This document shows, piece by piece, positions 21,548 through 48,841 of a DNA stretch of 64,000 nucleotides. A program made the position numbers and the translations under genes. Every line of letters starts with the position of its first letter. Within the stretch, counting starts at the first letter, position 1. Below the pieces are notes generated by a model. The model was not told the DNA's origin, did not search any database, and saw nothing but the letters and a program-made list of their open reading frames with translations. This DNA is from Nitrososphaeria archaeon (GTDB lineage Archaea > Thermoproteota > Nitrososphaeria > JACIWG01): contig CAVVXT010000010.1 of assembly GCA_963752255.1 (NCBI GenBank), positions 110,217 through 174,216 on the forward strand. Reading direction: 5' to 3'.

Positions 21548-21556
21548 ACTACTACA

Positions 21557-23771: not shown

Positions 23772-23776
23772 AGGCT

Positions 23777-24026: not shown

Positions 24027-24187
24027 TAATTTTAGGGCTTGTCCTGTTGCTTCAAGATTGTTCTTACTCATCGCTTTAAATATGTCTAGCATACTGGGGA
24101 AGTTTAATTAGAAGGAAAATAGTTATTTTCTTATTGACACTAAGGATTAATATCGCTACCTTTACAAATATGTATCAACTATTACCA

Positions 24188-27127: not shown

Positions 27128-27220
27128 ATGATGCCTGAGGAAAAAGCAAGAACAAGAATTGACCCAATCCTTAAGGCTGATGGATGGATAGTTCGGGTTA
27201 TGAATGGTTTGAGGAAATAA
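27128..27220 (+). pseudogene. 30-codon N-terminal relic of a different HsdR
   Basis: MMPEEKARTRIDPILKADGWIV parallels the HsdR start SEYRTRREKIDVQLRKSGWDV. Confidence 0.55.
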
Positions 27221-27222
27221 CT

Positions 27223-30037: not shown

Positions 30038-31508
30038 ATTGAAATCGCAAATCAATAAGCTCTGGGATAGATTTTGGTCCGGAGGGATTGCCAATCCGCT
30101 TACTGCAATCGAGCAGATGTCTTACTTAATTTTTATGAAAAGATTGGAAGACCTAGATAACATCCATGCAAGAAGAGCAGCAGCGAGGAACGAGAAACAC
30201 AAATCACTTTTTGAAGGGCATGAAAATTGTAGGTGGTCACAATGGAAACATCTTAACGCTCAAGCAATGTTGAGACATGTTCAAGAAGTCGTTTTCCCAT
30301 TTATTAAAAACCTGACCAACGGCGATGATGTATTATACTCACAATATATGAGAGATGCTGTATTCGTTATTCCAAAGGCTTCCTTGCTGCAGGAAGCTGT
30401 CGCGATAATTGACGATATGAATATCACAGAACGAAATCAAGACACCCAAGGAGACATCTACGAATATCTGTTAAGTGAGCTAAAGACTGCAGGCAAGAAT
30501 GGACAGTTCAGAACACCAAGACATATCATTCGAATGATGGTTGAACTCATCGAGCCTGATATAGGCCAGACTGTTTGTGATCCTGCCTGCGGTACAGCTG
30601 GTTTTCTGATTGCTGCTTACGAACACATCTTGAGAAAATATACAAGCGATGATATCATAAGTATCCACGAAGATGGCTCAACACACAACTTGGTTGGAGA
30701 CAAAATTGTTGAGAAATCTCATTGGGACCTTTTGAAACGAGAAACATTTTTCGGCTTTGATTTTGACACTACAATGATTCGTATTGGATTAATGAACATG
30801 ATTCTCCACGGTATCGGGAGACCTAACATTCGTTATGCTGACACTCTTTCTAAACGCTTTGAACAAAAGGCACGGTATGATATTGTTTTTGCGAATCCTC
30901 CATTTGCTGGATCAATCGATAAAAGCGACATTAATGATTCTTTTAAATTAGATACAACGAAAACCGAACTTCTGTTTTTGGAACTCTTCTATAATCTTCT
31001 GAAGATCGGAGGTAAAGCTGCAGTTATTGTTCCAAACGGTGTCTTATTTGGTTCATCAAATGCACACATCAAAGCTAGAAAACTTGTGTTGGAGAATTGT
31101 CAACTTGAAGCTGTAATTTCCATGCCTGGAGGTGTTTTCCAGCCCTATTCCGGCGTTGGTACAGCCATTCTTGTTTTTGTAAAGGGAGGTAAGACCGATA
31201 ATGTTTGGTTCTACGAGATGCGACAGGATGGATATACCCTAGATCAGAAACGTGATTTTATTGATGGCGAAGGTGACATTCCTAATATAATTCAGAAGTA
31301 CAAGAAGCGAGAGGAGTCAGGACAAAGCATCTTGGTGCCATTTGAGAAGATAAAACAGAGTGATTACAACCTCTCAATTTCAAGATACAAAAAAGTTGAG
31401 CGCGAGGAAGTTGAATATGAAGACCCTTTAGTTCTAATAGACAATGTTCTAGAAAGTGAGCGTGAAATCGAAAACGATTTAATAACTCTTAAAAAGATGA
31501 TTCAATGA
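30024..31508 (+). CDS. hsdM: Type I R-M m6A methyltransferase
   Basis: GQFRTPRH, DPACGTAGF, ANPPF. Confidence 0.95.
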   Translation: MLAPELKSQINKLWDRFWSGGIANPLTAIEQMSYLIFMKRLEDLDNIHARRAAARNEKHKSLFEGHENCRWSQWKHLNAQAMLRHVQEVVFPFIKNLTNGDDVLYSQYMRDAVFVIPKASLLQEAVAIIDDMNITERNQDTQGDIYEYLLSELKTAGKNGQFRTPRHIIRMMVELIEPDIGQTVCDPACGTAGFLIAAYEHILRKYTSDDIISIHEDGSTHNLVGDKIVEKSHWDLLKRETFFGFDFDTTMIRIGLMNMILHGIGRPNIRYADTLSKRFEQKARYDIVFANPPFAGSIDKSDINDSFKLDTTKTELLFLELFYNLLKIGGKAAVIVPNGVLFGSSNAHIKARKLVLENCQLEAVISMPGGVFQPYSGVGTAILVFVKGGKTDNVWFYEMRQDGYTLDQKRDFIDGEGDIPNIIQKYKKREESGQSILVPFEKIKQSDYNLSISRYKKVEREEVEYEDPLVLIDNVLESEREIENDLITLKKMIQ

Positions 31509-32624
31509 AAATATCGAAACTGGAAGAACTTGCAGATATTCAATACGGATTTCCTTTTAATTCAAAGAAATTTAAGGAAAATGGTAGGATTCGGGTTGTA
31601 AGAATAAGGGATATAAAGAAACCTGAAAAACCTACTTTTTTAGATGATATCTATAGACAAGAATATGTAATTGGAAACGGAGATATTATTGTTGGAATGG
31701 ATGGAGAATTCAATTGTATTATTTGGAATTTTGGAAAAGCTGTCTTGAACCAACGAGTTGCAAAAATTATACCTAAGAACTTTGTTTCCAAGAGTTATCT
31801 CTATTATATTCTTAAAATTAAACTCAAAGAGATAGAACAGAGGGTAACATTTGCTACAGTAAAACATCTACTTGATTCACATCTTCGGAATCTTGAGATA
31901 CCCTTTCCTCCATTAAATGAACAGATACGAATAGCATCCATCCTTGGAAAAATTGATGAGCTGAAAGATAAACGGGAACAAGCAAATTTGATGACTAACA
32001 AAATTCTTCAAGTTATTTTTCTGCAGATGTTTGGAGACGGTAATTTCACACGTGAGCCTATCAGAGAACATATTATAAAGACAGAAGTAAGAGACCCACA
32101 AAAAAAACCTCATGAATACTTCAAATACATCGATATTGCTGGAATTGATAATAAATCTGGAAAAATAGTAAAAGTAAAAACTATACCTAGGGAAAGATGC
32201 TCCAAGCAGAGCAAGAAAAGTAATCAGAAAGGATGACGTGATCATATCAACAGTGAGACCTAATCTAAATGCAACTGCGCTTGTTCCGCCTGAGCTCGAT
32301 AGTCAGATTTGTTCTACTGGGTTTTGCGTTCTTCGTTGTAAGAGCTCATTGAATCCAAGATTCCTATATGTTTTCACAAGAAGAACAGAATTCATCGATG
32401 TTCTATCATCTCAGATGAAAGGAGCTTCCTATCCCGCTGTGACAAACGATGATGTCTTGAATGTTGAAATACCAATTCCCCCTATTGAACTTCAGAATAA
32501 ATTCGTTTCAATTGTTGAAAGAGTCCAAAATATCCAAGAAAAACAGCAGCTATCCACTGGGGAAATTACAGAGTTATTCAATTCTCTCATGTCCAAATCA
32601 TTTAAGGGAGAGTTGGTGTCGTGA
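31505..32624 (+). CDS. hsdS: Type I R-M specificity subunit (frameshift near 32190)
   Basis: Two TRDs with IPFPPLNEQ and IPIPPIELQ; ends LMSKSFKGEL. Confidence 0.9.
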
Positions 32625-32625
32625 G

Positions 32626-33483
32626 ATGCAGTTCCTTTTAAAACCTAATTGGCAACAATTAAACAGATACATCTGGAATTCCCTTGAAAAATCGGCACCA
32701 GCTGACGTATATATTGAATTATATCGCTTTCAAGGAAGAATATTGGGAATTGATTCACGAGCAAATGAGCCCGACGTCACACAAGAAGAAATAGATGCTC
32801 GTAACATGTTTTTAATTATAATAAATGACACAAAACTAGCTAAAAATGAATTCAAAAAGTACAACCCTCCAACTAATGAAGCTATTTGTATCGAGCTATT
32901 GGAGGGATTCTATGGAGTCTTAAAAGACAACTTCGGTACTAAACTGGCAAAGAAATATTATTCAAAATTATCGCAGTTCTTACTCGAACATAATCTAAGA
33001 TACAAACTTGACGCAAATTGCAAGTTTCATTTAACAATTCAAGGCATATTAATGACTCAATATGTACATCTACGTCAGTTTCTTGAAAATAATCCTGAGT
33101 GCTCAGAATGTCTAAGTGAATTAGAAGACATCATTTCTAATTTACATCAGTCACAACAGCAAAGAAATTGTGTACGTGTTTCTAGCAATCTATTAGAAAA
33201 CTTGGTAGTTGCAAAAGCAAATAGAAGAGCTAGTACGCTATCGCGGGCTTTGGAACAATGTCCTGTGGATTTATTTCCACATGATGCAGTACGTGAAAGC
33301 TTAAAGAAGATTTATGATTTTGCATGCGATTATCCAAACATTCGACATGCTGGTAGACCTGAAAGCCGTTTAAGAGACCTCAGAAATGATGACGTGCTTC
33401 TTATCTTATCCTTAACAATAGGTTTCGCATCTTTTCTCTCTAGGGAGAATGTTAGTCAAACAATACTTAGTGGAGATATATGA
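32626..33483 (+). CDS. AbiJ-like / HEPN-like abortive-infection-type protein
   Basis: C-terminal KKIYDFACDYPNIRHAG; begins 2 bp after hsdS. Confidence 0.55.
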   Translation: MQFLLKPNWQQLNRYIWNSLEKSAPADVYIELYRFQGRILGIDSRANEPDVTQEEIDARNMFLIIINDTKLAKNEFKKYNPPTNEAICIELLEGFYGVLKDNFGTKLAKKYYSKLSQFLLEHNLRYKLDANCKFHLTIQGILMTQYVHLRQFLENNPECSECLSELEDIISNLHQSQQQRNCVRVSSNLLENLVVAKANRRASTLSRALEQCPVDLFPHDAVRESLKKIYDFACDYPNIRHAGRPESRLRDLRNDDVLLILSLTIGFASFLSRENVSQTILSGDI

Positions 33484-33647
33484 ATATTTAATCCCCTTTA
33501 CATTTCCTTTCTATCTTATTTGCTGTCTTGTCAATAGGTGATAATTCAAGTCTCGATTAATTCTTGAATTTCATCTTATCAGGTTACATATAAAACTTGA
33601 ATTTATTTTTAGGTTCTATATCTTTTTGTAAAAATGATGAACTTGTT

Positions 33648-33845
33648 TTAAATTAGAAATTTATACATACCTTTTCCCAAGAATGTGATAACTTTTTGGT
33701 CTCTCAAAACTTGCAGCTGTTGGCGGATCTTGGGGCGAATGTGCCTGTTTCTGGGATGGAGCCTGGCTAACTGGTCCTCAAACGTGTAGACCTGATCTAA
33801 CGTAAATGTCTCTTGGTCTAGCTTTCTTATACATAGTAGCACATC
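33648..33845 (-). pseudogene. Duplicated 3' end of dpnI (winged-helix domain only)
   Basis: FTLDQVYTFEDQLARLHPRNRHIRPKIRQQLQVLRD; DNA closely similar to 40661-40861. Confidence 0.85.
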
Positions 33846-34240
33846 AACTTTAAATCATTACGATAAATTTCAAAAAAGTATTATAGTTGTCTCGTCCAAA
33901 ACAGGAATACCTTCCTATGTCTCTTTAAAGAGACTTCTAAGAAAATACAAGTCTGAGGTTATTTTACGGGAAAAGTATCATAGGCATGCTTTAACTAAAA
34001 CTCATAGTTATGAATTACTTTTCATAGCACAATAATATGAATGAACCTAATGCTAAAATTGTTCCAATATTAGGTAACGTCTAGCGTCTGAATTTTATAG
34101 GTTATAGGGTTCTGTTAAATATCCTTTGTGTCTCTTCCTTTAATAATCTTTTTATAACAACCATTTCCTCATACATCTTAGAGTTTAGGTGATTTTGTAT
34201 CCGAATTTTTGCTCATGCTCTTTCAATAAGCTTCTTATCA

Positions 34241-34580
34241 CTCCTATTTTTTTCCTATTGCCCTTATTAACTTTCCTAAATAGGATTCTTAAAGTTCCTA
34301 AATAGAAGTCCCTAAATTTCCTACTTAGGAGTCCTATTTCCTGTCCTATTTTCCTGCTTAGGAATCCTATTTTTCCTGTCCTGTTTTCCTATTTTTTTCC
34401 TAAATTTCCTGCTTAGGATTCCTATTTTCCTATTTAGGATTCCTAATTTTCCTATCCACATGAAGCAATTCCTAAAGGTTTCCTGTACACACCCCTATTT
34501 ACCCTCTTTTCCCAGCTAAATTCCTGAACATTCCTATTTTCCTAAATTCCCTATTTAGAAGTCCTGATAACCTGTTCTAT
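34241..34580. repeat. Dense CCT(A/G)/TAGGA repeat array, iteron/origin-like
   Basis: About 29 CCT(A/G) motifs in about 340 bp by manual count, including five TTCCTRNWTAGGANTC(C/T)T units. Confidence 0.8.
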
Positions 34581-34628
34581 AGAATAGTCCTTTAGTTTAA
34601 GGCTGCTCTGATCTGATTTCTTATTATA

Positions 34629-34799
34629 ATGATGACGTCTTTTTATATGACGGGACTGCTCTATAATGAACATTGCAGTTTAATCAAAAACCCAGTCTTT
34701 GATAGAGCTTATAGGAATTACATGCAAAGGATGGTCAACCTCGGATTAATAAAAACTGAGGGAAAAGGAAGATGGAAAAGGTATGAGCTCGTCTCATAA
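34629..34799 (+). pseudogene. Orc1/Cdc6-like C-terminal winged-helix fragment
   Basis: TGLLYNEHCSLIKNPVFDRAYRNYMQRMVNLGLIKTEGKGRWKRYELVS*. Confidence 0.6.
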
Positions 34800-34896
34800 A
34801 ATATTCGTGAAACTCATCAAATTCTCTACTTATAAAACCTGTAGTGATTTTGTAGTAATCGACCTTCTGGGAGTTCGTAGAATTGAAAAGTTTCGC

Positions 34897-35594
34897 CTAC
34901 AGTTCCTCTTTTAAATGGGTAAACTTGGTCCAATTATAAATATCAATCCATCTGGTTATAAGCATATTATTATTGATATTTCTATTCATTTCTTGAATAA
35001 TTTTTCTCTTGGCATCCATTAGGTCTATGGCGTTTATCTTTGCATAATCCTCAACTAATTCTCTGTATTCATTTTGCATTCTGATAAGAAAAGTTGTGTA
35101 GCCTTCAGCAGTTCCAGTTACTCCCCAGTTATCTCGAATATTGGTATCCCATATTATGAATAAATTTGGGTAGACCATATGCATAACTTTTGAAGTGCAT
35201 GTGGATTTAAGAACCGCATTTATATCGTTAAAAGTGTTCTTTACTTCCTGTTTAATGTTATTAATATCGAAGTCAAGGTCAAAATTACAGTTTTTGAATA
35301 TTCCAGAGATACTCGACTAAGTGTCTTAGATTTTTCAATGTTCAGAGATAGAAATTTCTTTTCACCCAATTCCTTTTTTATTTTTCCTATAACTCGTCCC
35401 ATTTTCCATTCAAAAAGAAATTTCTCCACTTGTTTAACATCAGTTGGAGATGTAGTACCATTTACATAGTTCTTCCAAAACGGTTCTTCAAGCCATTGGA
35501 AGTAATCGTCCTCCGCATAAATATCTCTTTTATAAATATCTATTATTCTAAAGAATTCTTTTAGTTTCATAATACTATAGTTCGTCTCAGTCAT
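34897..35594 (-). CDS. Helical DNA-glycosylase-like (DUF6308/OGG-like) protein, frameshifted
   Basis: FLFEWKM; TSKVMHMVYPNLFIIWDTNIR; TRWIDIYNW across two ORFs. Confidence 0.5.
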
Positions 35595-35744
35595 ATTAAT
35601 ACTTTAGTCGAACACCCCAACATCTTTCCGAATTAATTCTTTGGTCTAAAACATCTGATATAAGGCAACTTTTTTGGAGATCACTAACGATAAAAGAATT
35701 GACGCACAAGGCTTTAGGAGATATTGATACTTATAGGAATGGAA

Positions 35745-36326
35745 CTAAGCATTAGGGCTTTCTACAGGATATCTAACCAATAGTATTGTTTCTCTCAGAA
35801 TATCGCTTAAGCAGTGTTCCATTATCATCTTCAATAGGTTTTCTGTTCCTCCTGATAAATATGCTTTCCATAGTCCAGGTACGTCCTTTCCGCATATTTT
35901 ATCATCATTGAAATAATCTTCAGGTTCGCTCATCAGATCATCCAATTTAGGCCATTTTAATCCCGATTCTTCTGCCTTCTTTCTCCATGGCTGCATTATA
36001 TCCACAAAATCATCATCAGCCACTTCCATCTTTAGTTCGATTCTGATAACATCTTTTTCAAATCTGGTGTTATATGAGTAGAGTGGTTTGGGAAGTGTTC
36101 TAATCGTTTCTCTTATCTCCCGGTAGAAGGGCTCCTTTTCTTTCGTTTTTCTTTGAACAATAATGAGTTCGTTCAAACGAAAATAACCAAAGGTAATTAC
36201 CTCGTGTTCTCTGTCTCTGTTTGGTATACCTGTGGTCTCGAAATCAATCAAACTCCCTTTGTTTATGCATAGAGCTAGTGATATAGTCGTCTTTATGTGA
36301 TTCTTGTATACTTTTAATCCATTCAT
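35745..36326 (-). CDS. RNase H-like (RNase_H_2 / DEDD) exonuclease-domain protein
   Basis: IDFETTG, YSYNTRFE, HCLSDILRE. Confidence 0.8.
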   Translation of the reverse strand: MNGLKVYKNHIKTTISLALCINKGSLIDFETTGIPNRDREHEVITFGYFRLNELIIVQRKTKEKEPFYREIRETIRTLPKPLYSYNTRFEKDVIRIELKMEVADDDFVDIMQPWRKKAEESGLKWPKLDDLMSEPEDYFNDDKICGKDVPGLWKAYLSGGTENLLKMIMEHCLSDILRETILLVRYPVESPNA

Positions 36327-36403
36327 TAATTCTAAATTTACTTAGTCTCAATATAAGTTTATCATTTGTCTTTATACGAAAGAGAAATAATCAACGTCAT
36401 AAG

Positions 36404-36455
36404 GAACTTGTTTTAAATTCGAAATTTATACACGCCTTTTCCTAAGAATGTGATA
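36404..36455 (-). repeat. 52-bp copy of the dpnI 3' end
   Basis: gaacttgttttaaattcgaaatttatacacgccttttcctaagaatgtgata matches 33639-33690 and 40652-40703. Confidence 0.85.
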
Positions 36456-36595
36456 GGAATTTGTTGTATATTTTACAAATGAGAGAGCAATCATCAAGAT
36501 TTAATTAAACTGTTCATATATAATATTAACTCGATTTACTTTTTTATTAGAAGATTAGTCATAAGAATAATTCTAAAAGGAAACCAAGAAATCGT

Positions 36596-37100
36596 CTAGT
36601 AACCAATGATCAAATTTCCTTTCAGAGGCAATTTCAGTCTTCCACTGGCATATAGTGTGTCAAAATGGGTGACCACTGTTTCAAAATCAGGATGTTTTCT
36701 ATAGATAATACGAACAGCTATAACTAAAAAGCTCACGTCATGCATCATACAAGCTTCAAACAAGTCCTTTAGAAACTGGTAATTAGTCACAGCCCTTCCA
36801 GCTTCTACTTCAAGGACTGTACCTGTGTCTTTTTGGAAAGCGTTTACCTGAAAAGATTTCTCAAGTTGATTATTTCGCCCAAAAAGGACTGGCACTTATC
36901 TTATCTCCAAGCTTATTGCCTTTCTCCACTTTAAAGCCAATGTCTAGTAGGGACTTCTTCAGAACCAAAAGAACTCCATCGCTGTTCAGTTTGTGCTCTG
37001 AGGAATCTATTGCGCCAGCATGCTGCTTGAAAATGTTAACAACTTTTAGCAGGTATTCAGGTATGACATCTGACTTTGGATAATACTGCCAGCTTGTCAT
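36596..37100 (-). CDS. PD-(D/E)XK restriction-endonuclease-like protein (BglII/BstYI-like EVE motif), frameshifted
   Basis: PVLFG...VLEVEAGRAVTNYQFLKDLF; two overlapping ORFs. Confidence 0.6.
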
Positions 37101-37776
37101 GACATGTACAGATAAATAACAAGTTATATATTATTTATCGCAATATTTCTGTGAATAAAAATGATAAATAATTGGTATCTCTATTGTCACGTTCTAATAA
37201 TTATTGGACAAAATTAATACCTATAGTAATAAAAAACAAACATAATATTTGATTGCTTATATATTGCTCATATTTTTTGAAGATCAGTAAGTTAGAAAGT
37301 ATGATGAAGAATTTGTTTTAAATTCGTAAAATGTTTAGTTTTGGATTACCAGTATAGTCGTCTGAAAAACCTTATATTCAAAGATCATACTGTCTAGAAA
37401 TTAATGTCGAAAACTGAGAAAGAAATAATGGACTTATTAGAATTAGAACAAAAAGAAGTACCTATTCTCTCCTTCCCGCATATAGGGCAAATATTACTCA
37501 TGAATTAATGAAGATTCCGTCAGCATAATTGTAAATATGATCAAATTCAATTTCCTCTGGTGAATAACCTTCAAAACTCTTAAGGCATATGTAACATTCT
37601 TTATGATTGTTTAAAAGAGAGGATTTTTCATCTTGAGTAAGAATCCTCCGTTTTTCTTTGGACATAATTTTCCCTATTTCTGTTTCTTAACATATAAATA
37701 CCTTCTTTTAAGTTTAATGGTATCCGCAACTTTGATAAAACAAGTTTATATAAAAAAGAGATTTTATATCTAGTGT

Positions 37777-38259
37777 ATGAATTCTTTTTATAATCAATCC
37801 AATAGGGAACAGGGGAACAAAATTAAAAGGTTTGATGATATATTCAAGCTTTGGCTTACTATTTTAACTATCATCTTTTCTTTCTCCCTTGCTTATCAAA
37901 GATTTATAATGCCAACTGGCTTTTATTCCACTTTTATATTGATATTGTTATTAACAATAATTTTTTGGTCTGTGGGTCATACAAGAGAAAATATTTTCCT
38001 TGAAGTTTTTTTAAAATTTTTTTCATGGTTTTTATTAATGTATTTTACTGTAATAACAGTATTATATGTTACATACGGAGTAACTAGTTTAAAAAATATA
38101 CCAATTGGAATGATTGTAATGGGTCTTGTTGCTCAATTTTATCTTGTGTTACCTGTCTATTATTATTTTAGAGATTATCTTGCAAATAGGGGAAAATTAG
38201 CCTTTATTTTATTCTTCATAGAAATCATAATTCTGACTATAATTAGTTATTTTTTATAA
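37777..38259 (+). CDS. Hypothetical membrane protein (very AT-rich)
   Basis: 160 aa, about 5 TM segments. Confidence 0.6.
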   Translation: MNSFYNQSNREQGNKIKRFDDIFKLWLTILTIIFSFSLAYQRFIMPTGFYSTFILILLLTIIFWSVGHTRENIFLEVFLKFFSWFLLMYFTVITVLYVTYGVTSLKNIPIGMIVMGLVAQFYLVLPVYYYFRDYLANRGKLAFILFFIEIIILTIISYFL

Positions 38260-38556
38260 CTTTCACTTATCCTTCACTTTCAGCTAGAGGAGATAATAGG
38301 CTAGTTGAAGAGGCCCTAGAAGAATTTAGAGATTCTATTAACTACAATGTGCCTTTATTCCTAACGGTTCAAAATATCCTTGATAAAAGTAAGATCATGT
38401 CTTTTGAAAATAGACCCTAGAACTTTCGACCATTGGACTACACCGCCAGAGCTGGCGATAGAATAAAAAATATAGTGTGGCTAGTTCACCTCTCGCTTTT
38501 TTGACATTAAGGAATAGATTTATAATTTTATATACTCAATAAAGAATAATTGTATT

Positions 38557-39486
38557 TTGAAGTCATTGAATAATGATTGTGATAAAGACTTAGTTGACAA
38601 ACAACTAAAACAAACCCACCTTGCAACTATGTTAGACTATTACTCTGGGAAAGGTGCATCACATATAACAATTTTTATAGCTTTCGTATTTGGTCTTTTT
38701 ACAATACTAGCAATATTATTTTTATCAAATATTACCGATATCCCATTTGTTATATTATCAATTATCTACTTTTTTTTCTCAATTGGAGGATTATATGAGT
38801 TTTTTAAATTCAGTTTTTATAATAATGTTGTAAATCACATAAATGTTGAATTAGATAACCTAGTTCCAACACCAGAATATACAAGTTTTGAATTTGGCTC
38901 TCGCCCCTATTCAGAGCGCAAAGGCTCCAAACTTTCAAAACGTATTTATCGTATCTTCTATTTTTCACGTCAAAGGAGCTTAGTTCTTAATTTGGTTGTA
39001 ATTCTTTTTTCTGGTTCAATTCTTTTTGCTTGGATTGCTTCAATATTTAATCACTTCATCCAATTTGAAATTACTCTAAAGCAAGCCTTATACCCTTTCA
39101 TTGTAATTTTGGTATTTATCGGTGTATTACTATATTATTTAACATCTAGAGAAGAATTAAAAATTGTAAAAACTGATATAAATGATTATGAAATTAATAT
39201 TGAACTTAACGTATTAGAGGATACTGTAATAAGTCAAGTGCGTGTAAATGGAAAACCAATATTAAAAGATAAGATGATAGATGACATAAATGTAGAAATA
39301 TCTCCTATTCCAATATTTAATAAAAAAGGCGAAGCAATTATACCTTTAAAGAAAGGGAAACAGGATTTGAAATTGATATTCCCTAAAGAAAGGAAAACGG
39401 AATTTGAAACAAAGGTCTATTACATAGCAATCTTGACAGAAGGAGAACCTCCTTTACGATATTATACAAGTGCCCCTGAAAAGTAG
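38557..39486 (+). CDS. Hypothetical membrane protein with a C-terminal beta-rich domain
   Basis: 309 aa, 4 TM segments then a beta-strand-like tail. Confidence 0.6.
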   Translation: MKSLNNDCDKDLVDKQLKQTHLATMLDYYSGKGASHITIFIAFVFGLFTILAILFLSNITDIPFVILSIIYFFFSIGGLYEFFKFSFYNNVVNHINVELDNLVPTPEYTSFEFGSRPYSERKGSKLSKRIYRIFYFSRQRSLVLNLVVILFSGSILFAWIASIFNHFIQFEITLKQALYPFIVILVFIGVLLYYLTSREELKIVKTDINDYEINIELNVLEDTVISQVRVNGKPILKDKMIDDINVEISPIPIFNKKGEAIIPLKKGKQDLKLIFPKERKTEFETKVYYIAILTEGEPPLRYYTSAPEK

Positions 39487-39518
39487 CATGTATATATATT
39501 CTACATAATTCGTCATTA

Positions 39519-39746
39519 TTAGTTAACATCTAGCCTTTTCCGTTGAAGTTCTTTAACTATCTTCTCTATTTCTGAAACCTTAGAAATCTCCTTTTCCAAT
39601 ATTTCAACCCTATTCCTTAAACTAATGTTTTCAGTCGCTAGGGAATTAACTAGTGTTTGAAGTTCTTTATTCTTTTCGCTTATTTCTTCAGAATATTCTT
39701 TAACTTTCTCCTTGACCTGCTTTAGAAAGTCTTTAACATGATCTAG
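39519..39746 (-). pseudogene. Coiled-coil gene tail without a start codon, possibly an integrase C-terminus
   Basis: DHVKDFLKQVKE...KELQTLVNSLATENISLRNRVEILEKE...*. Confidence 0.4.
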
Positions 39747-40318
39747 TCTGACCCAAGAATTTTGCTCAATTCTTTCTGATCGCCAAGATCAAGAAGTTTC
39801 TTTATGTCATCTTCCAGTGTCTCTAGCCCAATTTCGCGACGAATTGCACCTGCGGTTATGGAGACATCGTCCCAAAGTTTTCGCCATTGATCAGCTGTTA
39901 AGGTGACTGAACTAGTCTTTTTTAAAACATCGTCATAGATGGCTCTTGCAACCTCTCTAAATATCCCACGAACATTAGAGATTTCTTTCTGAATGTTCGC
40001 CAACCAGATAACGTTCTGCTGTTCAAGCTTCTTCCATTCCTCCAGCTTTATTCCTACCTCACGTCTATAGTCACTTTGTGACGAAAGTAAATAAGGGGAG
40101 TTTGCATACATATTCAAAATAAATCGAACTTCAGCCATCTTCCTGTATGTTGCGTCTAGGGCTTCAACACGCTTAAAGTTTACTGGATCCAATAGCTTCT
40201 GCCTTCTTTCTTTGTCTAAAAGTTTCTCGTTCCACCAATTCGCAATCAAAACGCCAGCCAATGCAGAAGATGCAGAAATTATGGTTGCGGCTATTCCAAA
40301 CCAATCGGAAAGTACCAT
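39743..40318 (-). CDS. Hypothetical protein with N-terminal TM anchor and helical domain
   Basis: 191-aa ORF. Confidence 0.65.
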   Translation of the reverse strand: MVLSDWFGIAATIISASSALAGVLIANWWNEKLLDKERRQKLLDPVNFKRVEALDATYRKMAEVRFILNMYANSPYLLSSQSDYRREVGIKLEEWKKLEQQNVIWLANIQKEISNVRGIFREVARAIYDDVLKKTSSVTLTADQWRKLWDDVSITAGAIRREIGLETLEDDIKKLLDLGDQKELSKILGSD

Positions 40319-40666
40319 AGAGAACTATAAAGATATATTGAATCCTATTCTTAACATTATTCAGACTTGGGAAAATGGTTCAGTTGTATATTAAGATCAA
40401 TCCGATTTCATAATTAGAAAGACCGTCTCCTCCTAATGTACTTATGTGATGTGCTTCCCAACATCCTCTTCAATTTCATTTAGCCTATTCTTTAGGTCAA
40501 TGTCCCTCAGATTTAATTTTCCTCCTATATCAAAACGTTAGTTAATAATAAAAATAGGAGAATAGTTATGATAATTGAAAACCCAAAGCTAGGGAGAAGC
40601 CTCCCCGAAAATCAAAAGCCATACGGAGATGAAAACACATCTATCGCAGAGGAAATAGTTTTAAAT

Positions 40667-41455
40667 TCAAAATTTATACATACCTTGCCCCAAGAATGTG
40701 ATAACCTTTTGGTCTCTTAAAACTTGTAAACTGGCTGGCGGATCTTGGGGCGGATATGTCTGTTTCTGGGGTGGAGCTTAGCTAATTGGTCCTCAAACGT
40801 GTAGGCCTGATTTAACGTGAATGTCTCTTGATCTAGGCTTTCTTATGCATGCCAGCACATCCGTCATCCATCCCCGTGAAAGGGACGACTGTCCAAGTAG
40901 GAATGAAAATCTTTTCCAAGAATACCTTACCGCATTCTTGGGCATTTCAAACCCATCCCTGATGATATGTATTCGAGCATCTGTTGGCAGTTCTCCGAGG
41001 AGAATGCTGGATCCTACCCAGCCGCTCCGTCTAGCAGATTCCCTGAGGGGTTTCCGTTTTTCTACTACTGATTCCGTCATGAAATATTTTGGAACAAGAA
41101 ACAGGTTCGACACATTAAACAATTTCATGTCGTATTGGAGGAAGAGGTAGCTCGGTGCCGTTCCAGCGCGTATTGCTTTGATCTTCGGTTCATAGGCGGA
41201 GTTCATGATCTGATATCCGTAGGGGTGGCTCTGGCTCTTCAGTTGATATTCTTCCAGACAGTCCGGGCAGACAAAGTCCACTACCTGCCTTCCTGTTGGA
41301 GTGGTAGATAATACATCGGATGCGCACGCTGGGCAGTACAGGTTCTCCTGAACCCAATCTTCGGTGAGAACTCTTGCCCGTTGGGACAGGCTCCTATATG
41401 GCGATGCTATTTCAGGTTTTAGCTCAAGCTTCAATCTGAACTCAGAAAATATCAA
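40667..41455 (-). CDS. dpnI: DpnI-family (Dam-replacing) Gm6ATC-dependent restriction endonuclease (frameshifts in the wH tail)
   Basis: SQRARVLTEDW, CPAC, DFVCPDC.EEYQLKS, RKPL..ARRSGWVG, wH C-terminus. Confidence 0.9.
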
Positions 41456-41980
41456 GAGTTTCTAAAATTTATAGGTTATGATATAAGAAATTCGTGCATG
41501 TGATTAAAAAGCTTAATATTTTGCCTTCCATTAAGATGTCCATAAGTCAGAATGTCGGAAGAATTGATTAAAGGGTATATTGAGGATTACAATTATCAAG
41601 AGGACAATCAGGGAACTTATCGTGACTTTATTCATATAGAAAAAAGATATATGTTCACCATTCTTGATTCTTGCAAAAGTCCCAAAGAGATCTTTTTATG
41701 CTATTAGTGTAACCTGCAAGAGCATATTTTCTAAACAGATCCAATTATACCTTTTATTTAGTCCGGTGATTGTTTCCAAATTTTGGGATAGTCTATGGAC
41801 AATAGGGAGAATATCTTTTAGGTTGCGGCGGGTAGTGGAAGATGGTTAACGGGTGATAGCTTGCTAGACTGCGATGTCAGCCTATGGCTGGTGTCCCCTA
41901 AAAAAGCCCAGTACACCCCAGCAGAAGACCCTACCACCCATATTTAATGGCAGCACAAATTTTGCCAGATAAAAATCTAA

Positions 41981-42078
41981 ATTATCCACCATTATCCTCA
42001 CCATTATCCTCACCATTATCTTCCATTATCCTTATACGTTATGCCCCCATTATCCTAATTATTATCCAAGATTATCTT
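41981..42078. repeat. Helically phased ATTATC(C) direct-repeat array
   Basis: ATTATC at 41981, 41991, 42003, 42015, 42025, 42049, 42061, 42071; degenerate GTTATG at 42038. Confidence 0.85.
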
Positions 42079-42240
42079 AAAGCTAGTGCCTTTATCGATT
42101 CCAAATTTTATCAACTCCGAGAATCTGCCTTTCCTAGCTATGAATATCTTTGTTTAAAGTAGAGTGAATTCACTTCACGGTAATGTAGTAATAGAATATT
42201 TAATGTACCTTCTCAGTATACAACTCTCTGAGATCTTTTA

Positions 42241-42813
42241 TCACATTTGCATAGAACCCAACGCTACTAATGATATGCCGACAAGAAAAGCTCCTAAAGT
42301 AGCAGCAATCTGAGTTGTGTTATTTTTTAAATTCGCTTTTGCAAGTTCTGTTCCACACTCTTGACATCTGACCTGATCCCGCGAACTTTGTCCTTGGACG
42401 GGGATAAGGTTACTACATACAGGGCATGGAACAATTTTCATATCGATCTCCTCACTGTAACCGCATCCAAGAGTGATCATTTTCACCATGCCCCTTTTTT
42501 CTTCGATGACACCAAGCTTCAACATAAGGTGGATCAATTCTTGTTTACGCCATGGAATTTCTTCCCATCTCTTTTGTCCCCAATCATCAAAGTCTTTAAG
42601 CTCCGCTTCAATTCTTCCTCCTAGTTCGGTTAACGCATAACGCGGTGTAACGGTTGAAAATTTGAGCACGACTCCAGCTTTTTCAAAATCCACTAGTATG
42701 CGATAGACGGTTGTGGGGTTAATGTTCGCAAAACTCACTTTTTCAACTACTTCAGCTAAGGTGGGGGCTTGATCAGACTCTTTTAGGACTTTCAAAATTT
42801 TCGCCTTTAACAT
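42241..42813 (-). CDS. Winged-helix DNA-binding protein with Zn-ribbon and C-terminal TM anchor
   Basis: KILKVLK...TLAEV...PTTVYRILVDFEKAGVV...RYALT; CPVC...CQEC; hydrophobic tail. Confidence 0.75.
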   Translation of the reverse strand: MLKAKILKVLKESDQAPTLAEVVEKVSFANINPTTVYRILVDFEKAGVVLKFSTVTPRYALTELGGRIEAELKDFDDWGQKRWEEIPWRKQELIHLMLKLGVIEEKRGMVKMITLGCGYSEEIDMKIVPCPVCSNLIPVQGQSSRDQVRCQECGTELAKANLKNNTTQIAATLGAFLVGISLVALGSMQM

Positions 42814-42881
42814 GAATTACAACTCACGCTCAGTTTGTAATGGTGGTAGGTCGGTATAAAAGGTTGCGGTAGTTTAGAAAA

Positions 42882-44498
42882 ATGGAAAAGAAAAATGGGA
42901 AAAAAGTGGACGAAGAACCCGAACGGCTTGAAGATATTGCCAAGGAACTCAAGGAATTAGCCAAGAATAAGCCACTTAGTGATACAGATTTGGTGAGGGC
43001 TAAGCAGCTTATGTATAGGCTTAAAGAATTTGGTTTCACTAATAGGCAGATAAATGAGATAACTGATGGTGGATGGTCAGAGTCGACAGTAAAGCTCTAC
43101 ACGAGAGGTGCGACCGTCAAAAATTTGAGCCAGAAGAAGAATGCAGTTGACCTCTTAACTCAACTAATTAACATGGATTTGAGCCTAGAAGATGTTGAGA
43201 TATTCGTTTCGATAAAGAAAAATTTAGACTCTAAAAACGTTGGTTTCCAAGATATTTTAAACCTACTCGGTGAAGCTGACGGGCTTAAAGTTGATCCCAA
43301 AGAAATAGTTGCAACCTATCTAAATTTCCAGAATTCAGGCCTATCGGTAAGACAGTTGAGTGAAATCCTTTCATCCAAAGCAGAACTTGACAAAATGCAT
43401 GTGACAATTGAATTAATGGATGAAATTCTCCAAGCATCAAAAGTCTATGGAGACGCCGGTAAAATCCTTGAAGCTTTAAAAAGTTATGGAGCACTTGGGG
43501 CTATCCAAGAAGACATTAAGAAGACTTCTTCTGAGAAAGAGAATCTTCAGAATCAAGTTAACGGATTAAAGCTAGAAGTTACTGATTTGGAAAAACGTAA
43601 AGATGCTGCAAAAGATTCCCTGGCGACTTATGAAAGGATAAAAACTCTCGGCTTCGACGAACCCACCTTCAAGAGACTAAAGGCGTCAGCAGAAAAGTTC
43701 GGAAGAGTAGATTCAGTTCTTGATGCAGTAAACTCTTTCGTTGACCTATCTGAAATCAAGAGAAAGAAGGATGATTTAGAATCTGAGTTGAAGAAAGTTG
43801 AAGCTGATCACGCCCACCTTGCAACAATAATAGAGATCTGCAAGACATTGCTTTACAAATACAAGTTCAGTATAGCAGCCATAAACGACATCTACGAAGC
43901 CGCCAGAAATTACGGTGACCCATTACAGGTCTTGAAGGCTATTAACTTATACGGAGAAACCTTGAAGATTCGAGCAGAGATAGACACATTAAACAAAAAT
44001 AAAGAGCAACTTAAAGCAACGGTCAAAGAGCTTGGAGATCAATCTCAACAACTGGAGGCGACGATCAAAGCACTCAGGGCTTCAGTCGATGATGCTCTTG
44101 CGCCGATTAGGAACGAAATTACAAAGAATGTCGATTACGTGATTAAAAAGTTCGTTGAAACTTTAGCGGACATGTCTGTACAGTATGAACAGTACGCCCA
44201 AAGATATGGTGAACTAAAGGCTGAGGCAGGGAAACTTGAGGAGGACCTCAAGCTAGGCCGAATTATGCTGTTGCTCATAAAATATCCGAGCGAAGCTAGA
44301 CAGGTTCCATTGGAATATGATGCGCTTATACTGAGTGGCATAGTAAATCATTGCAGGGCTATGGGTATAAATCCGACACTTAAACTCCAAGACGTTGTTG
44401 AATCGAAATTATGGGCGATAGGAAGTTATAGCGTTACGTTAGTCGAACTGCTCGAATGGTCCCTGAAGGGGCTAAGAAAAAGCATCCCACATGTGTGA
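42882..44498 (+). CDS. HTH-like N-terminus plus long coiled-coil protein with three internal repeats
   Basis: GFTNRQINEIT..WSESTVKLY; repeats YGDAGKILEALKSYG, FGRVDSVLDAVNSFV, YGDPLQVLKAINLYG; no Walker A. Confidence 0.75.
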   Translation: MEKKNGKKVDEEPERLEDIAKELKELAKNKPLSDTDLVRAKQLMYRLKEFGFTNRQINEITDGGWSESTVKLYTRGATVKNLSQKKNAVDLLTQLINMDLSLEDVEIFVSIKKNLDSKNVGFQDILNLLGEADGLKVDPKEIVATYLNFQNSGLSVRQLSEILSSKAELDKMHVTIELMDEILQASKVYGDAGKILEALKSYGALGAIQEDIKKTSSEKENLQNQVNGLKLEVTDLEKRKDAAKDSLATYERIKTLGFDEPTFKRLKASAEKFGRVDSVLDAVNSFVDLSEIKRKKDDLESELKKVEADHAHLATIIEICKTLLYKYKFSIAAINDIYEAARNYGDPLQVLKAINLYGETLKIRAEIDTLNKNKEQLKATVKELGDQSQQLEATIKALRASVDDALAPIRNEITKNVDYVIKKFVETLADMSVQYEQYAQRYGELKAEAGKLEEDLKLGRIMLLLIKYPSEARQVPLEYDALILSGIVNHCRAMGINPTLKLQDVVESKLWAIGSYSVTLVELLEWSLKGLRKSIPHV

Positions 44499-44559
44499 TC
44501 ACTTTGCAATTCAATGAAAACATTGCATTCTTGACTTATCTTGTTGGGGGCTAAAGGGA

Positions 44560-45519
44560 ATGAGTCTAGAGAAAATTGAAGAGTACCTGAAAGATGTTCA
44601 AGCTATAAAGTTCTATGATACCATTAAAGCGCAAAATGAACGACTGATAGAGCAGAATAAGAAGATCGAAGAAACGTCTCAAATCGAAAGAAACAAACTG
44701 ATGGAAATAAACAGCGAACTGACACTAGAGCGTGACAACTTATCCCAAGAAATAATTGACCTCAGAGCTGAAGTCGACCAAAAAGATTCGAGGATCAATA
44801 ATTTGACGACCAATCTTGTTTCAAGCAGAGAAGAAGCCTCAAAACTCAAAGAGAGAGTTAAGGAACTTGAAGATCTAAAAGCTACGGTGGAAGGGAAGAC
44901 ACTCAAAGAGGCAGCAGAAATCTTCATAAAAGCCAAGAAGGAAGAAATTCAAAAGGAAGCTTTAGAAAGCTCCAACTTGATGAAAGCAGAATGGACACTG
45001 TCCGAAAAGCCTACGGAGGTAAGAAATGAAGCTATTCGAATACTCAATCACATAATCGCAAGCCTCAAGATAACAGGTTATAGACCGGAGATGACTGACT
45101 TGGCAGGGAAAGGATTGTATGATGATGTCGAAGCTATAATAAAGTCTGATGTCGACAAAAGGCTCGACGAAGAATTTGAAAAGAGGGTTGAACAAACATC
45201 TACTCAAAGAACCGCACAGAAGTTCAATCAATTAGTGTCTACAGAATGGCCGGACTTTCTGAGAACGCATTTGGAGCCGAAGGCTAGGGAACTGGAACTC
45301 AAAGTTAAATCCAACGTTCTGAGCCTTCTTCAGGGTACATGGCCTACAGAATGTGAACGGTGTGGAATGAAAGGTTCGCTAACCCTTCCAATTGAAGGGG
45401 TAGAATATCTACTAAGAAACGGCTCCATAAAAACAAACTGCCCTAATCATCAATGTCATCATCAAACTCCTTTGAAACTAATAGATCTAATAAAATTGAA
45501 ACTTTCTCCCAGTTATTGA
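44560..45519 (+). CDS. Coiled-coil protein with C-terminal Zn-finger
   Basis: Heptad-rich N-terminal half; CERC...CPNHQC. Confidence 0.72.
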   Translation: MSLEKIEEYLKDVQAIKFYDTIKAQNERLIEQNKKIEETSQIERNKLMEINSELTLERDNLSQEIIDLRAEVDQKDSRINNLTTNLVSSREEASKLKERVKELEDLKATVEGKTLKEAAEIFIKAKKEEIQKEALESSNLMKAEWTLSEKPTEVRNEAIRILNHIIASLKITGYRPEMTDLAGKGLYDDVEAIIKSDVDKRLDEEFEKRVEQTSTQRTAQKFNQLVSTEWPDFLRTHLEPKARELELKVKSNVLSLLQGTWPTECERCGMKGSLTLPIEGVEYLLRNGSIKTNCPNHQCHHQTPLKLIDLIKLKLSPSY

Positions 45520-45640
45520 TTAACATAATATCTGCTATCGCTCCTTTTTTTAAAATCTAGATGACTATTAAAGCGCGGTACTATTAATTTTTTAGCGATC
45601 CCTGTTATCACGAATCGTAGAAACCCAATTAAAGAAAATA

Positions 45641-45862
45641 TTAAAATGCCAGAGTGATCCATGTCGGAGTGAGTGAGTGAGTGAGCACTATATACGCTAT
45701 TGATGCAGGTTCCTTACCCAGCCACTTCACAAATTCAAGAATCTTCGACGCATTACCTCCCATTCCCGTATCCACAAGAACTAAAGCCTCCTTGCCGAGG
45801 AAGACGTAAGAGTTTGCGCCTCTCACACCAGGCACGAGATATACGCTTTCAGTGATCTTCAC
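45641..45862 (-). pseudogene. Truncated metallo-beta-lactamase-fold hydrolase
   Basis: NSYV...LVDTG...IVLTHS, then shifted H.D.DH and truncation. Confidence 0.7.
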
Positions 45863-46327
45863 ATTTCCTCACTCTCATAGTTATTGTTCTGAAAGGCTAT
45901 TATTTGAGTTTTGGGGGTCAAAGACATTAATCTATTATCCATTCAACGAAAGGGTTAATCTTAAGATCAAGGCTCAGAAGGCTAACTTGATTCGTTAAGG
46001 TGTTGAACAAGCTCCTTTGCGTTGTAAAACATCCACATTAGATCATCGAAGGGGAACAGATGGTTTAGAGAGGTCAAGGGCCTTCAGCTCCAGATATTTT
46101 TCAGGTGAAGCACCGTACTGCTCTACGACAGCTATGGCCCGCCTAATATATTTGCATCCTCGATCTTTCTGATTCTACCCTTCAATATCTCACGTTCAGG
46201 ATGTTTGGAAAGAAATTCTTTGAAAGCTATGGGATTGCCTTTATTCAAAACTTTAAGGTAGATATCAGAATAAACAGGAAATTTGTAAACCATAAAAGTT
46301 TAAAAATTTAGTCTACAGAATATTTGT

Positions 46328-48838: not shown

Positions 48839-48841
48839 ACA

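Follow-up and report, generated by a model that had tools for sequence, protein, structure and literature searches.

Four diverged copies of the 3' end of the restriction gene dpnI stand in direct orientation, ordered by length, within a variable genomic island, and at three of them homology ends within a few nucleotides of one position just past the dpnI stop codon. There is about an even chance, in our judgement, that this arrangement arose as foreign AT-rich DNA was inserted three times in succession at a single fixed point behind dpnI, inside the 27-kb island. Positions are coordinates in the window, the 64,000-nt stretch of contig C10 (CAVVXT010000010.1) that was analysed; the host genome is G000, and other contigs of the same genome are designated in the same way.

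Results

The island, the gene and the copies of its 3' end are as follows.

19276..46289, unstranded: variable genomic (defence) island, 27 kb, enclosing all copies and inserts (comparison with genome G001)
40662..41455, minus: dpnI, type IIM/IV methyl-dependent restriction endonuclease, wH part frame-shifted in this assembly (Pfam)
40649..40861, minus: gene-attached copy of the dpnI 3' end, with wH domain, stop and ~10 nt beyond (repeat families, alignment)
37304..37329, minus: 26-bp copy, stop-codon region and post-stop core only (repeat family D7)
36401..36455, minus: 55-bp copy, last ~35 coding nt of dpnI, stop and core (repeats, alignment)
33614..33845, minus: outermost (33.6-kb) copy, whole wH domain, stop, core and ~22 nt of native downstream flank

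The original prediction had placed four direct copies at these positions, and the repeat search confirms them far above chance: when at most 3 mismatches are allowed, a 29-mer motif is matched 3 times (0.00 expected), and when at most 1 is allowed, a 16-mer motif is matched 3 times (0.01 expected). The four share a core of ~16-26 nt at the stop codon. When a 19-mer core was sought genome-wide with at most 3 mismatches, only six sites were found, namely the four copies and two more, and the remaining 5 of the 11 matches in the scan each had 4 mismatches. The homologous part of the outermost copy (33636-33845, ~210 bp) is 86-89% identical to 40649-40861 (repeat families D2, D4 and D17), the 55-bp copy is 92% identical to the outermost copy and 85% to the gene-attached one, and the 26-bp copy matches at 85-88% (family D7), so that divergence among the copies spans 8-15%. 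The differences between the outermost and gene-attached copies fall 5/5/16 over codon positions 1/2/3, which agrees with the earlier observation that the copies have diverged, often at third codon positions.

The ORF at 40793-41455 matches Pfam DpnI (PF06044) at 5.8e-56, and the outermost copy, which holds an intact 64-aa ORF (33648-33842), matches Pfam DpnI_C (PF17726) at 2.9e-25. Both elements that define the DpnI / Dam-replacing family, an N-terminal PD-(D/E)XK domain (PF06044) and a C-terminal wH domain (PF17726), are therefore found when the first is scored on the gene ORF and the second on the 33.6-kb copy. To read the wH part of the gene itself, two shifts of frame have to be bridged: a single base near 40836 and two bases near 40727-40735 are additional to the 33.6-kb copy, and the gene's ORF consequently ends at 40793. 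The gene at 40652, which had been described as full, is thus not intact in this assembly. A related contig from metagenome run X1 lacks the three extra bases, and the assembly contains other indels, since purB lacks one nucleotide that G001 has, and both hsdR and hsdS are broken into pieces. The gene-attached and 33.6-kb versions of the wH domain differ at about 5 residues, and relic wH copies in genome G003, in the Thermoplasmata MAG L035 and on contig C19 are broken; the suggestion that wH domains are swapped at this locus finds no support in these comparisons.

At the gene-attached, 26-bp and 55-bp junctions homology is lost within about 6-9 nt of one position, to the left of 40658, 37315 and 36410 respectively, and each of these three inner junctions abuts a different, unrelated sequence. 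The native downstream flank is kept by the outermost copy alone; ~22 nt of it are common to two orphan copies of the dpnI 3' end elsewhere in the genome (G000:C19:315277-315442 and G000:C12:206666-206744), which have ~35 nt downstream in common with each other. The proposal that all copies share one left endpoint consequently holds to within ~6-9 nt for the three inner copies and fails for the outermost, which runs ~22 nt further, while the idea that insertions recurred at a specific position immediately after the dpnI stop is supported both by the coinciding junctions and by the restriction of the native flank to the outermost copy. The coincidence of the boundaries rests on short AT-rich sequence.

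An independent X1 metagenome contig, 98% identical, runs from insert C into the 55-bp copy and departs from the sequence of this locus exactly at 36455, so the junction is real and its boundary variable. The 141 nt of this contig beyond 36455 do not match dpnI at 85% likeness or more, so the form in which dpnI would lie directly next to insert C is not seen in it. A 6-bp inverted repeat in the core is perfect in one of six copies, the 26-bp copy, and comparison of the six copies reveals no conserved hairpin or other secondary-structure site at the core. The repeat search and junction comparison found no end sequences common to the three inserts, and such mutually unlike ends are odd if one integrase family moved all three.

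The flanks of the island align to contig C1 of the same-genus genome G001 at 91-94%, up to 19274 and from 46290; G001 lacks the whole island and holds a different 21.5-kb insert between the same flanks. The island, which includes a type I R-M system, an OLD/AriA-like ATPase and a PDC-S32-like gene, has a GC content of 36.2%, compared with 40-41.5% in its flanks. No nearer relative than G001 turned up in 41 related genomes, genome_contigs or metagenome_contigs, and the best amino-acid identity in the public collections is 72-76%. Contig C10 has no tyrosine integrase (PF00589), the genome's 4 matches, which are tyrosine-recombinase genes or fragments, all lying elsewhere, and no recombinase was found among the 33 island ORFs in Pfam, NCBIfam or PADLOC.

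Three inserts lie between the copies.

37330..40648, unstranded: insert A, 3.3 kb, GC 31.5% (ORF list, hydropathy, repeats)
37498-37665, strand not given: small ORF in insert A (ORF list)
37777-38259, plus: membrane-protein ORF in insert A (TM segments)
38557-39486, plus: membrane-protein ORF in insert A (TM segments)
39743-40318, minus: membrane-protein ORF in insert A (TM segments)
38347-38472: gene-end relic repA in insert A, recurring elsewhere in the genome
39518-39760: gene-end relic repB in insert A, recurring elsewhere in the genome
36456..37303, unstranded: insert B, 0.85 kb, GC 32.7% (ORF list)
36596-36895 and 36870-37100, both minus: overlapping ORFs in insert B, apparently one frame-shifted gene
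33846..36400, unstranded: insert C, 2.55 kb, GC 33.1%
34268-34455: degenerate repeat array in insert C (repeat search)
34629-34799, plus: small ORF in insert C (ORF list)
34897-35184 and 35241-35594, minus: ORFs in insert C (ORF list)
35745-36326, minus: RNase H-superfamily gene in insert C (Pfam RNase_H_2, 5.6e-13)

These units contain 1-4 ORFs each, on both strands. Among the cargoes previously read from this stretch, the three membrane proteins are borne out by hydropathy, the RNase H-like gene by its Pfam match and the repeat array by its presence at 34268-34455, while the "glycosylase-like" gene and the "Cdc6 relic" find no counterpart in Pfam, NCBIfam or PADLOC. The restriction-enzyme-like gene of insert B possibly encodes a BglII/BamHI-like endonuclease: the similarity to Atlas BglII/BamHI-like clusters, at 0.87-0.89, is a lead only, and Pfam, NCBIfam and PADLOC give no match. 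Apart from this weak lead, the cargo contains no defence gene recognisable in those three collections, and no methyltransferase lies between the copies according to Pfam. A homologue of the insert B gene (~86%) occurs in run X1 in a different context, and a 69% homologue of the RNase H-like gene occurs in another archaeal MAG (L194), again in an unrelated context. The relics repA and repB are found as a pair again on C19, C6 and C3, and repB also on C5, adjoining an integrase fragment; the genome also has them within or next to tyrosine-integrase elements, at tRNA-Cys (C3) and on C5.

Pieces of dpnI also lie elsewhere. The gene occupies non-syntenic places in G000 and G003, further 3' relics without an array occur on G003:C3 and C14, L035 has a 3' relic upstream of the gene, and N-terminal relics are present in G001, G066 and G047; dpnI with its native 3' flank belongs to a multi-copy mobile module in this lineage. 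Broken copies elsewhere adjoin tRNA-Arg attachment-site relics. The 3' half of a tRNA-Arg-like sequence follows the C19 relic at a distance of 70 nt; the G003 dpnI gene has a 27-bp copy of the tRNA-Arg(ccg) end ~200 bp away, and dpnI pieces have tRNA genes as neighbours in G066 and G047. The 55-bp copy and the C19 orphan agree at 49/51 nt (96%). Because the copies are 8-15% diverged and the nearest relative of the 55-bp copy is on another contig, they were probably imported rather than duplicated on the spot; duplication in place followed by drift fits poorly with this divergence, with the C19 match and with flanks that differ from G001 by 6-9%.

In 160 other dpnI loci, the 3' end of the gene is no more repeat-prone than its surroundings, which does not bear out the idea that this end is a general integration anchor and argues against a general dpnI-specific process. 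Direct repeats were found in the dpnI neighbourhoods of 45 of these loci (83 pairs). In one bacterial metagenome locus (L158) a gene for a 717-aa AAA/ORC-like ATPase is flanked by dpnI on one side and by an 81-88-bp copy of the dpnI end on the other, and in another (L184) a 2.3-kb insert at dpnI is bounded by a 102-116-bp repeat which begins 15 bp before the dpnI stop.

Discussion

In the proposed sequence of events, the fixed point would overlap the dpnI stop codon and the first ~10-20 nt downstream, and each incoming piece would have carried its own att-like block resembling the dpnI 3' end (about 205, 52 and 26 bp). Each piece would have recombined at the gene-proximal copy, so that older copies were pushed outward to give the order 26, 52, 205, with the native downstream flank still attached to the outermost copy alone. 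This would be the pattern of integrative elements whose repeatedly used att site lies at the 3'-distal end of a protein gene. The order of events, the site-specific recombination and the import of the blocks with the inserts are what we infer from the observed repeats, boundaries, divergence, orphans and island. Base composition speaks for the explanation (dpnI 46% GC, 46.3% when measured on the gene; inserts 31-33%; flanks 40-41.5%), as do the repA and repB relics of insert A and the mobility of dpnI. The units now have no integrase and look decayed, and the array is most probably fossil and could at best be mobilised in trans. Weighing against the proposal, insert B is only 0.85 kb long and consists of one broken gene, and the C19 and C12 orphans show that 3' relics arise without any array.

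Those relics are also the starting point of the most serious alternative, which we regard as possible but doubtful: that the copies are the surviving ends of several dpnI modules, randomly whittled in a hotspot with no defined insertion point, the 3' relics persisting because loss of the nuclease half is harmless or favoured. Such unspecific decay would account for the array-less 3' relics on C19, C12, G003:C3, C14 and in L035, for the N-terminal relics in G001, G066 and G047, for the tRNA or att relics that adjoin dpnI pieces, and for the frequency of direct repeats near dpnI generally. It does not predict that three independent outer breakpoints would agree within a few nucleotides, that the 26-bp and 55-bp copies would lack a native flank which the C19 sister of the 55-bp copy still has, or that four copies would share one orientation and be ordered by length.

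It is unlikely that recombinase-less inserts instead duplicated the dpnI tail on the spot, to a variable length. Furuta et al. (2010; PMC2853133) found restriction-modification units that had entered by insertion with long target duplication; in their survey a flanking direct repeat had to exceed 30 bp, repeats overlap the last 2-15 bp of the neighbouring gene, and zero archaeal cases passed the screen. As in those units (PMC2853133), variable direct repeats (here 26, 55 and 210 bp) cover the 3' end of a neighbouring gene in a restriction-gene setting, and transposase or integrase genes are absent; one insert is restriction-enzyme-like, and L158 and L184 present the same picture at dpnI in bacterial metagenomes. 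The mechanism predicts near-identical repeats, however, and those found here are 8-15% apart, too diverged for recent duplication in place, with one nearest to a copy on another contig. The inserts furthermore lack R plus M gene pairs, the only candidate being a possible endonuclease relic in insert B, and the 26-bp copy falls below the 30-bp threshold, although the 55-bp and 210-bp copies are long enough.

A broader reading, to which we give only a slim chance, is that the ~20-nt core around the dpnI stop acts as a portable attachment site for any circle that carries a piece of the dpnI tail, which would be inserted either through homologous (Campbell-type) recombination or with the help of a recombinase acting in trans. 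Since dpnI spreads widely by horizontal transfer, circles with a conserved tail piece could insert behind it, and this locus, L158 and L184 would be candidate examples; the 160-locus comparison weighs against this.

Slightly less probable again is a living cassette platform, in which the core would still be used by an integrase encoded elsewhere, with capture and excision in trans, from which a defence array would grow and wH domains might be exchanged. The same boundary evidence as for stacked insertions, the four tyrosine-recombinase genes or fragments elsewhere in the genome and the intact 64-aa wH ORF of the 33.6-kb copy are compatible with it. No integrase lies nearby, however, no secondary-structure site is conserved, the cargo is not recognisably defensive and consists partly of gene-end relics, the two wH versions are nearly the same protein and the relics in G003, L035 and C19 are broken, and neither excision nor an alternative junction appeared in the contigs of a single run that matched weakly. 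An active platform is therefore probably not what this locus represents, and the integron-like defence array that had been envisaged is not supported, given the missing integrase and hairpin site, the multi-gene units of mixed orientation and a cargo with no recognisable defence gene beyond the weak endonuclease lead. The locus is like mobile integrons in having an array of units at one anchor, but IntI, attI and attC hairpins are absent, as are promoter-less single-ORF cassettes of uniform orientation.

Finally, an assembly artefact or a diversity-generating retroelement with template and variable repeat is very improbable: despite the indel-type defects of the assembly, the copies are diverged and so are not mis-joined duplicates, and an independent X1 contig spans the junction of insert C with the 55-bp copy, which effectively rules the artefact out, while the retroelement, whose hallmark is indeed partial 3'-end gene copies downstream in direct orientation, is effectively refuted by the substitution pattern (7/28 at adenines of the putative template, 6/28 in the other direction, the rest ordinary transitions) and has no reverse transcriptase among the ORFs scanned with Pfam.

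Stacked insertion at the dpnI 3' end has its closest parallel in the tandem elements of thaumarchaea, whose hosts probably belong to the same class as this archaeon. Krupovic et al. (2019; PMC6563490) report that 14 of 68 thaumarchaeal integrated elements lie in 3'-distal regions of protein genes, that the stop region is replaced and that arrays arise by site re-use. The locus resembles the elements described there (PMC6563490) in its direct repeats over the stop region of a protein gene with a replaced stop, in the re-use of a site with short att sequences to form an array, and in cargo that is often cryptic or R-M related; direct repeats over the dpnI 3' end bound each unit. Unlike those elements, no integrase is present in or beside any unit (contig C10 and the 33 island ORFs), the units, at 0.85-3.3 kb, are small and unrelated to one another, the repeat blocks vary in length (26-210 bp) and have diverged by 8-15%, the target is a mobile and now frame-shifted restriction gene, and the same-genus genome G001 lacks the island as a whole instead of displaying an empty site.

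Comparable accretion occurs in bacteria, where ICESt1/ICESt3 and CIMEs accrete at the fda 3' end in Streptococcus thermophilus and phage 21 and e14 integrate at icd in E. coli. In these systems, as proposed here, a replacement 3' end is supplied, internal att copies delimit the units, and units that have no integrase endure and are open to mobilisation in trans. An integrase has been identified for those systems and their excision demonstrated; the units of the present array contain no integrase.

It is plausible, on the basis of these comparisons, that the locus is a new example of the tandem integration already described at 3'-distal ends of protein genes, and on its own it opens no new mechanism. 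If the portable-site reading were true, integrase-less gene stacks would be expected behind dpnI in both archaea and bacteria. If the stacked-insertion explanation is true, further foreign DNA would have landed at a mobile restriction gene in the genome of an uncultured archaeon; the locus would add a target and an integrase-less, fossil-like case to thaumarchaeal stacking at protein-gene 3' ends, and it would provide a worked case of the growth of a defence island by accretion at fixed junctions.

Copies of the dpnI 3' end

The 3' end of dpnI, which encodes the C-terminal winged-helix (wH) domain of DpnI (Pfam DpnI_C), recurs in the window in direct orientation, as the original prediction had stated, with three extra copies besides the one attached to the gene (40649-40861). 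Two further copies, both of which lack the 5' part of dpnI, are found on other contigs (C19 and C12) of the source genome, which comprises 2.1 Mb in 19 contigs and has archaeal gene content (A-type ATPase subunits, NurA, intron-bearing tRNAs).

Copies of the dpnI 3' end and the inserts between them (window coordinates unless a contig is named)
33636-33845, direct orientation with dpnI: outermost (33.6-kb) copy, 86-89% identity to the dpnI 3' end
33846-36400: insert C, with a degenerate repeat array, an RNase H-superfamily gene (5.6e-13) and small unassigned ORFs
36401-36455, direct orientation with dpnI: 55-bp copy, identity of 92% with the 33.6-kb copy and of 85% with the gene copy
36456-37303: insert B, with one apparently frame-shifted gene giving a weak BglII/BamHI-like lead
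37304-37329, direct orientation with dpnI: 26-bp copy, 85-88% identity
37330-40648: insert A, with three membrane-protein ORFs as well as repA and repB, which are both relics of gene 3' ends
38347-38472: repA, in insert A
39518-39760: repB, in insert A
40662-41455, minus strand: dpnI, whose ORF at 40793-41455 matches Pfam DpnI (5.8e-56)
C19:315277-315442: orphan copy, 140-170 bp, several frame breaks
C12:206666-206744: orphan copy, about 60-80 bp

These counts are far above chance: a 29-mer motif has 3 matches compared to 0.00 expected, a 16-mer motif has 3 compared to 0.01, and the 19-nt core occurs with at most 3 mismatches at only six places in the whole genome. The copies' inner edges yielded no additional degenerate cores with at most 4 mismatches, and an exact-motif scan of the genome contig collection returned a single match, which is bacterial and unrelated. 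In the 33.6-kb copy a 64-aa ORF is intact and matches DpnI_C (2.9e-25), and the differences of this copy from the gene copy fall 5/5/16 at codon positions 1/2/3, in agreement with the predicted divergence at third positions. This bias was considered as a sign of separate functional origins and dropped for being indecisive, since a similar mix results when a functional gene and a neutral relic diverge.

Junctions and proposed order of insertion

With the six copies put in register on the shared GTTTTAAATT, the 33.6-kb copy has about 22 nt past the stop in common with the C19 and C12 copies, and these two have about 35 nt in common with each other; judged from this alignment, the common sequence is taken as the native downstream flank of dpnI. 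In the gene-attached, 26-bp and 55-bp copies all likeness is gone about 6-9 nt to the left of the anchor, beyond which the three copies adjoin three different sequences, at the ends of inserts A, B and C, and three independent junctions therefore coincide within a few bases. This coincidence, together with the fact that the native flank is still joined to the outermost copy only, is the pattern expected from successive insertions at one point. The insertion point would lie between the dpnI stop codon and the native flank, the most recent insert would be the one nearest the gene, and the block lengths (26, 52 and 205 bp going outward) would have been fixed by what each insert brought. The reading best supported is that of a fixed point behind dpnI at which insertion has recurred, and we assign it about an even chance of being correct. 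The recurrent integration anchor originally proposed for the dpnI 3' end is supported by the coinciding junctions, while the notion of an active integron-like platform is not; most likely the locus is a fossil, a stack of decayed inserts that lack an integrase, within a defence island.

The objection that the copies are an artefact of assembly can be evaluated with an independent sediment metagenome run, in which 6% of the sampled words are present and only the covered parts of the stretch are informative. One 765-nt contig from this run, at 98% identity, covers 35834-36455 and bridges insert C and the 55-bp copy, so this junction is not an assembly artefact; beyond 36455 the same contig continues with 141 nt unlike the window, and the inner edge of the 55-bp copy therefore varies. 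No joints between any two dpnI copies were reported in the contigs of the run at this level of representation.

At the level of single bases, the gene-attached wH region exceeds the 33.6-kb copy by three bases, one near 40836 and two near 40727-40735, and because of these the ORF ends at 40793; a related dpnI contig in the sediment run is without exactly these three. In addition, purB (47325-48838) has a 1-nt deletion at about 47973 relative to the intact gene of the same-genus genome G001, and hsdR (27184-30037) and hsdS (31505-32624) are each split in two ORFs. The broken genes here represent either frequent pseudogenes or assembly indel errors. In this archaeal class two other full-length dpnI genes were found, in the related genomes G003 and G066, and both likewise have frame shifts, at other positions: in G003 (G003:C5:17053-17850; locus L011, 9544-10371) the shift is within the catalytic domain, and one zinc-finger cysteine pair is lost, with CPSW in place of CPDC, while in G066 (G066:C5:1582-2335; locus L026) it lies between the two domains.

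Local duplication or import

The copies could have been made locally, by target duplication followed by drift, or they could have arrived with the inserts. Divergence among the tail copies is 8-15%, and the island flanks are 6-9% different from G001. The 55-bp copy is 96% identical to the C19 orphan over 51 nt and is without the downstream flank that this orphan retains, and GC content is 46% in dpnI, 31-33% in the inserts and 40-41.5% in the flanks. The copy divergence, the similarity to C19 without the flank and the GC contrast, taken together, favour blocks that would have arrived with the inserts.

Contents of the inserts

Several of the predicted cargo labels are borne out, namely the three membrane-protein ORFs, the RNase H-superfamily gene and the repeat array; no support was found for a "glycosylase-like" gene or a "Cdc6 relic". 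The proposed defence array is not sustained by the cargo, in which no match to a defence family was found except a weak DEDDh match. Almost no paralogues of the cargo proteins occur elsewhere in the genome. For the RNase H-like protein, the genome contigs contain one 69% homologue in an unrelated context, and no viral contigs carrying it were found. Rfam searches of 19-47 kb (E up to 0.1) gave no match, and at the orphan loci there were only spurious miRNA matches.

The repA and repB pair is also present on C19 (316071-317188), C6 (31797-32755) and C3 (166001-166485), and the slot flanked by the two relics, 0.28-1.05 kb long, has different content at each of the four loci. On C3 the pair lies within an element adjoining tRNA-Cys and a tyrosine integrase, and on C5 repB (17370-17544) follows an integrase fragment. 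The slot looks like a variable hotspot within an integrase-bearing element family. The two relics are conserved and face each other, one ending in "...DPSTFDHWTTPPELAIE" and the other being a coiled-coil C-terminus. At C3:166866-168967, the tRNA-Cys (168894-168967, minus strand) adjoins the integrase, which is split by one TAA, and a 47-bp copy of the tRNA-Cys 3' part lies 2 kb off in inverted orientation (166866-166912); the integrase segment may therefore be invertible or rearranged.

Island setting and mobility of dpnI

Window positions 14000-19274 and 46290-61000 align to G001:C1 at 90-94%. In G001 the interval between these flanks is occupied by a different insert, of 21.5 kb, that includes another type I R-M system, while the island in the window contains a type I R-M system, an OLD/AriA-like ATPase and a PDC-S32-like gene; by this comparison, the dpnI locus lies within a variable island. 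To the right of dpnI, at 42882-45519, a coiled-coil (SMC/Rad50-like) gene and a 319-aa gene form a pair that has a paralogous pair on C6 (39096-41612, 44-60% identity) and a 32% relative on C5 (11428-12555). No tRNA or att relics were found in 33-42 kb: in a BLAST comparison of the window with the genome's full set of 46 tRNAs, only tRNA-Asp itself matched, and in a looser search the one piece found, 17 nt long and tRNA-Arg-like, lies at 20687-20703, which is outside the array. This piece belongs to a sequence of about 43-60 nt at 20667-20730 with a tRNA-Arg-like 3' end (GTCCCACCGGACCCGC), which has further copies at four places on C19 and one on C7 (91-97%) as well as matches on several contigs of G001. 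Lying in the left part of the island, this sequence may represent either a dispersed att relic or a family of small repeats.

Within this lineage the gene itself is mobile. The source genome and G003 have it at non-syntenic places, with homology that stops at the gene edges, and N-terminal dpnI relics are present in G001, G066 and G047 (a further related genome). The C19 relic has a tRNA-Arg(CCT)-like 3' half 70 nt behind it; about 200 bp upstream of the G003 gene, 27 bp of the tRNA-Arg(ccg) 3' end are repeated; a 212-bp wH relic in G003, 88.7% identical to that genome's own gene, lies 3.1 kb from tRNA-Arg(ccg); and the dpnI pieces in G066 and G047 adjoin tRNA genes. No self-repeats were found around the G003 and G066 genes. 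About 700 bp from the C12 relic, C12:205807-205965 encodes an N-terminal fragment, 53 aa long, of an N4/N6 DNA methyltransferase (DPPF motif), and this fragment is 100% identical to C19:77030-77188.

Generality across dpnI loci

Loci that encode the wH domain were sampled from genomes (80) and from metagenomes (80). At the dpnI 3' end, 10 of 158 loci have short direct repeats, compared to 3/79, 6/92, 8/107, 11/135, 10/126, 13/102, 1/84 and 3/77 at eight control offsets in the same loci. Non-tandem direct-repeat pairs of at least 50 bp number 83, in 45 of the 160 loci, and seven of these pairs, in five loci, touch the dpnI tail, compared to a rough chance estimate of about 5. Since the tail counts are near the control and chance levels, there is no enrichment at the dpnI 3' end, and the tail was rejected as a general repeat hotspot.

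Two loci individually resemble the window in their sequence arrangement. In locus L158 (1429-4070), dpnI is separated from an 81-88-bp copy of its own end by a gene for a 717-aa AAA/ORC-like ATPase, and L184 (9989-12545) carries an insert of 2.3 kb, the bounding repeat of which (102-116 bp) begins 15 bp ahead of the stop. Both are bacterial-looking metagenome contigs, with the order methyltransferase, dpnI, insert and then tail copy (81-116 bp, 90-96%), and may represent insertions with long target duplication at dpnI. A third locus, L035, has a 252-bp relic, but upstream of the gene.

Comparison with known systems

Two known systems are comparable. Among thaumarchaeal integrated elements, 14 of 68 lie in 3'-distal parts of protein genes, the stop region is replaced, and arrays arise by re-use of one site (PMC6563490, Krupovic et al. 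2019), while R-M units insert with target duplications, long and variable in length, overlapping neighbouring genes at their 3' ends (PMC2853133, Furuta et al. 2010). The window fits the thaumarchaeal elements better than the R-M insertions, because its blocks have diverged and were apparently imported. The lineage is probably of the same class as the hosts of those elements, judging from L032, the titled record nearest to the wH copy, which carries the label of a Nitrososphaeria MAG. The window departs from the elements with respect to their integrase.

An integron-like array, as originally suggested, is rejected: no integrase was found on C10, the contig containing the window (C10:110217-174216), the genome's four tyrosine-recombinase genes or fragments lie on other contigs, and an attC-like hairpin in the core is not conserved among the six copies. 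No evidence was found for the suggested swapping of wH domains, and a DGR is rejected on the substitution spectrum and the lack of an RT among the scanned ORFs. With a fixed, re-used insertion point at the 3' end of a gene, the window would be a further example of a kind of locus that is already known.
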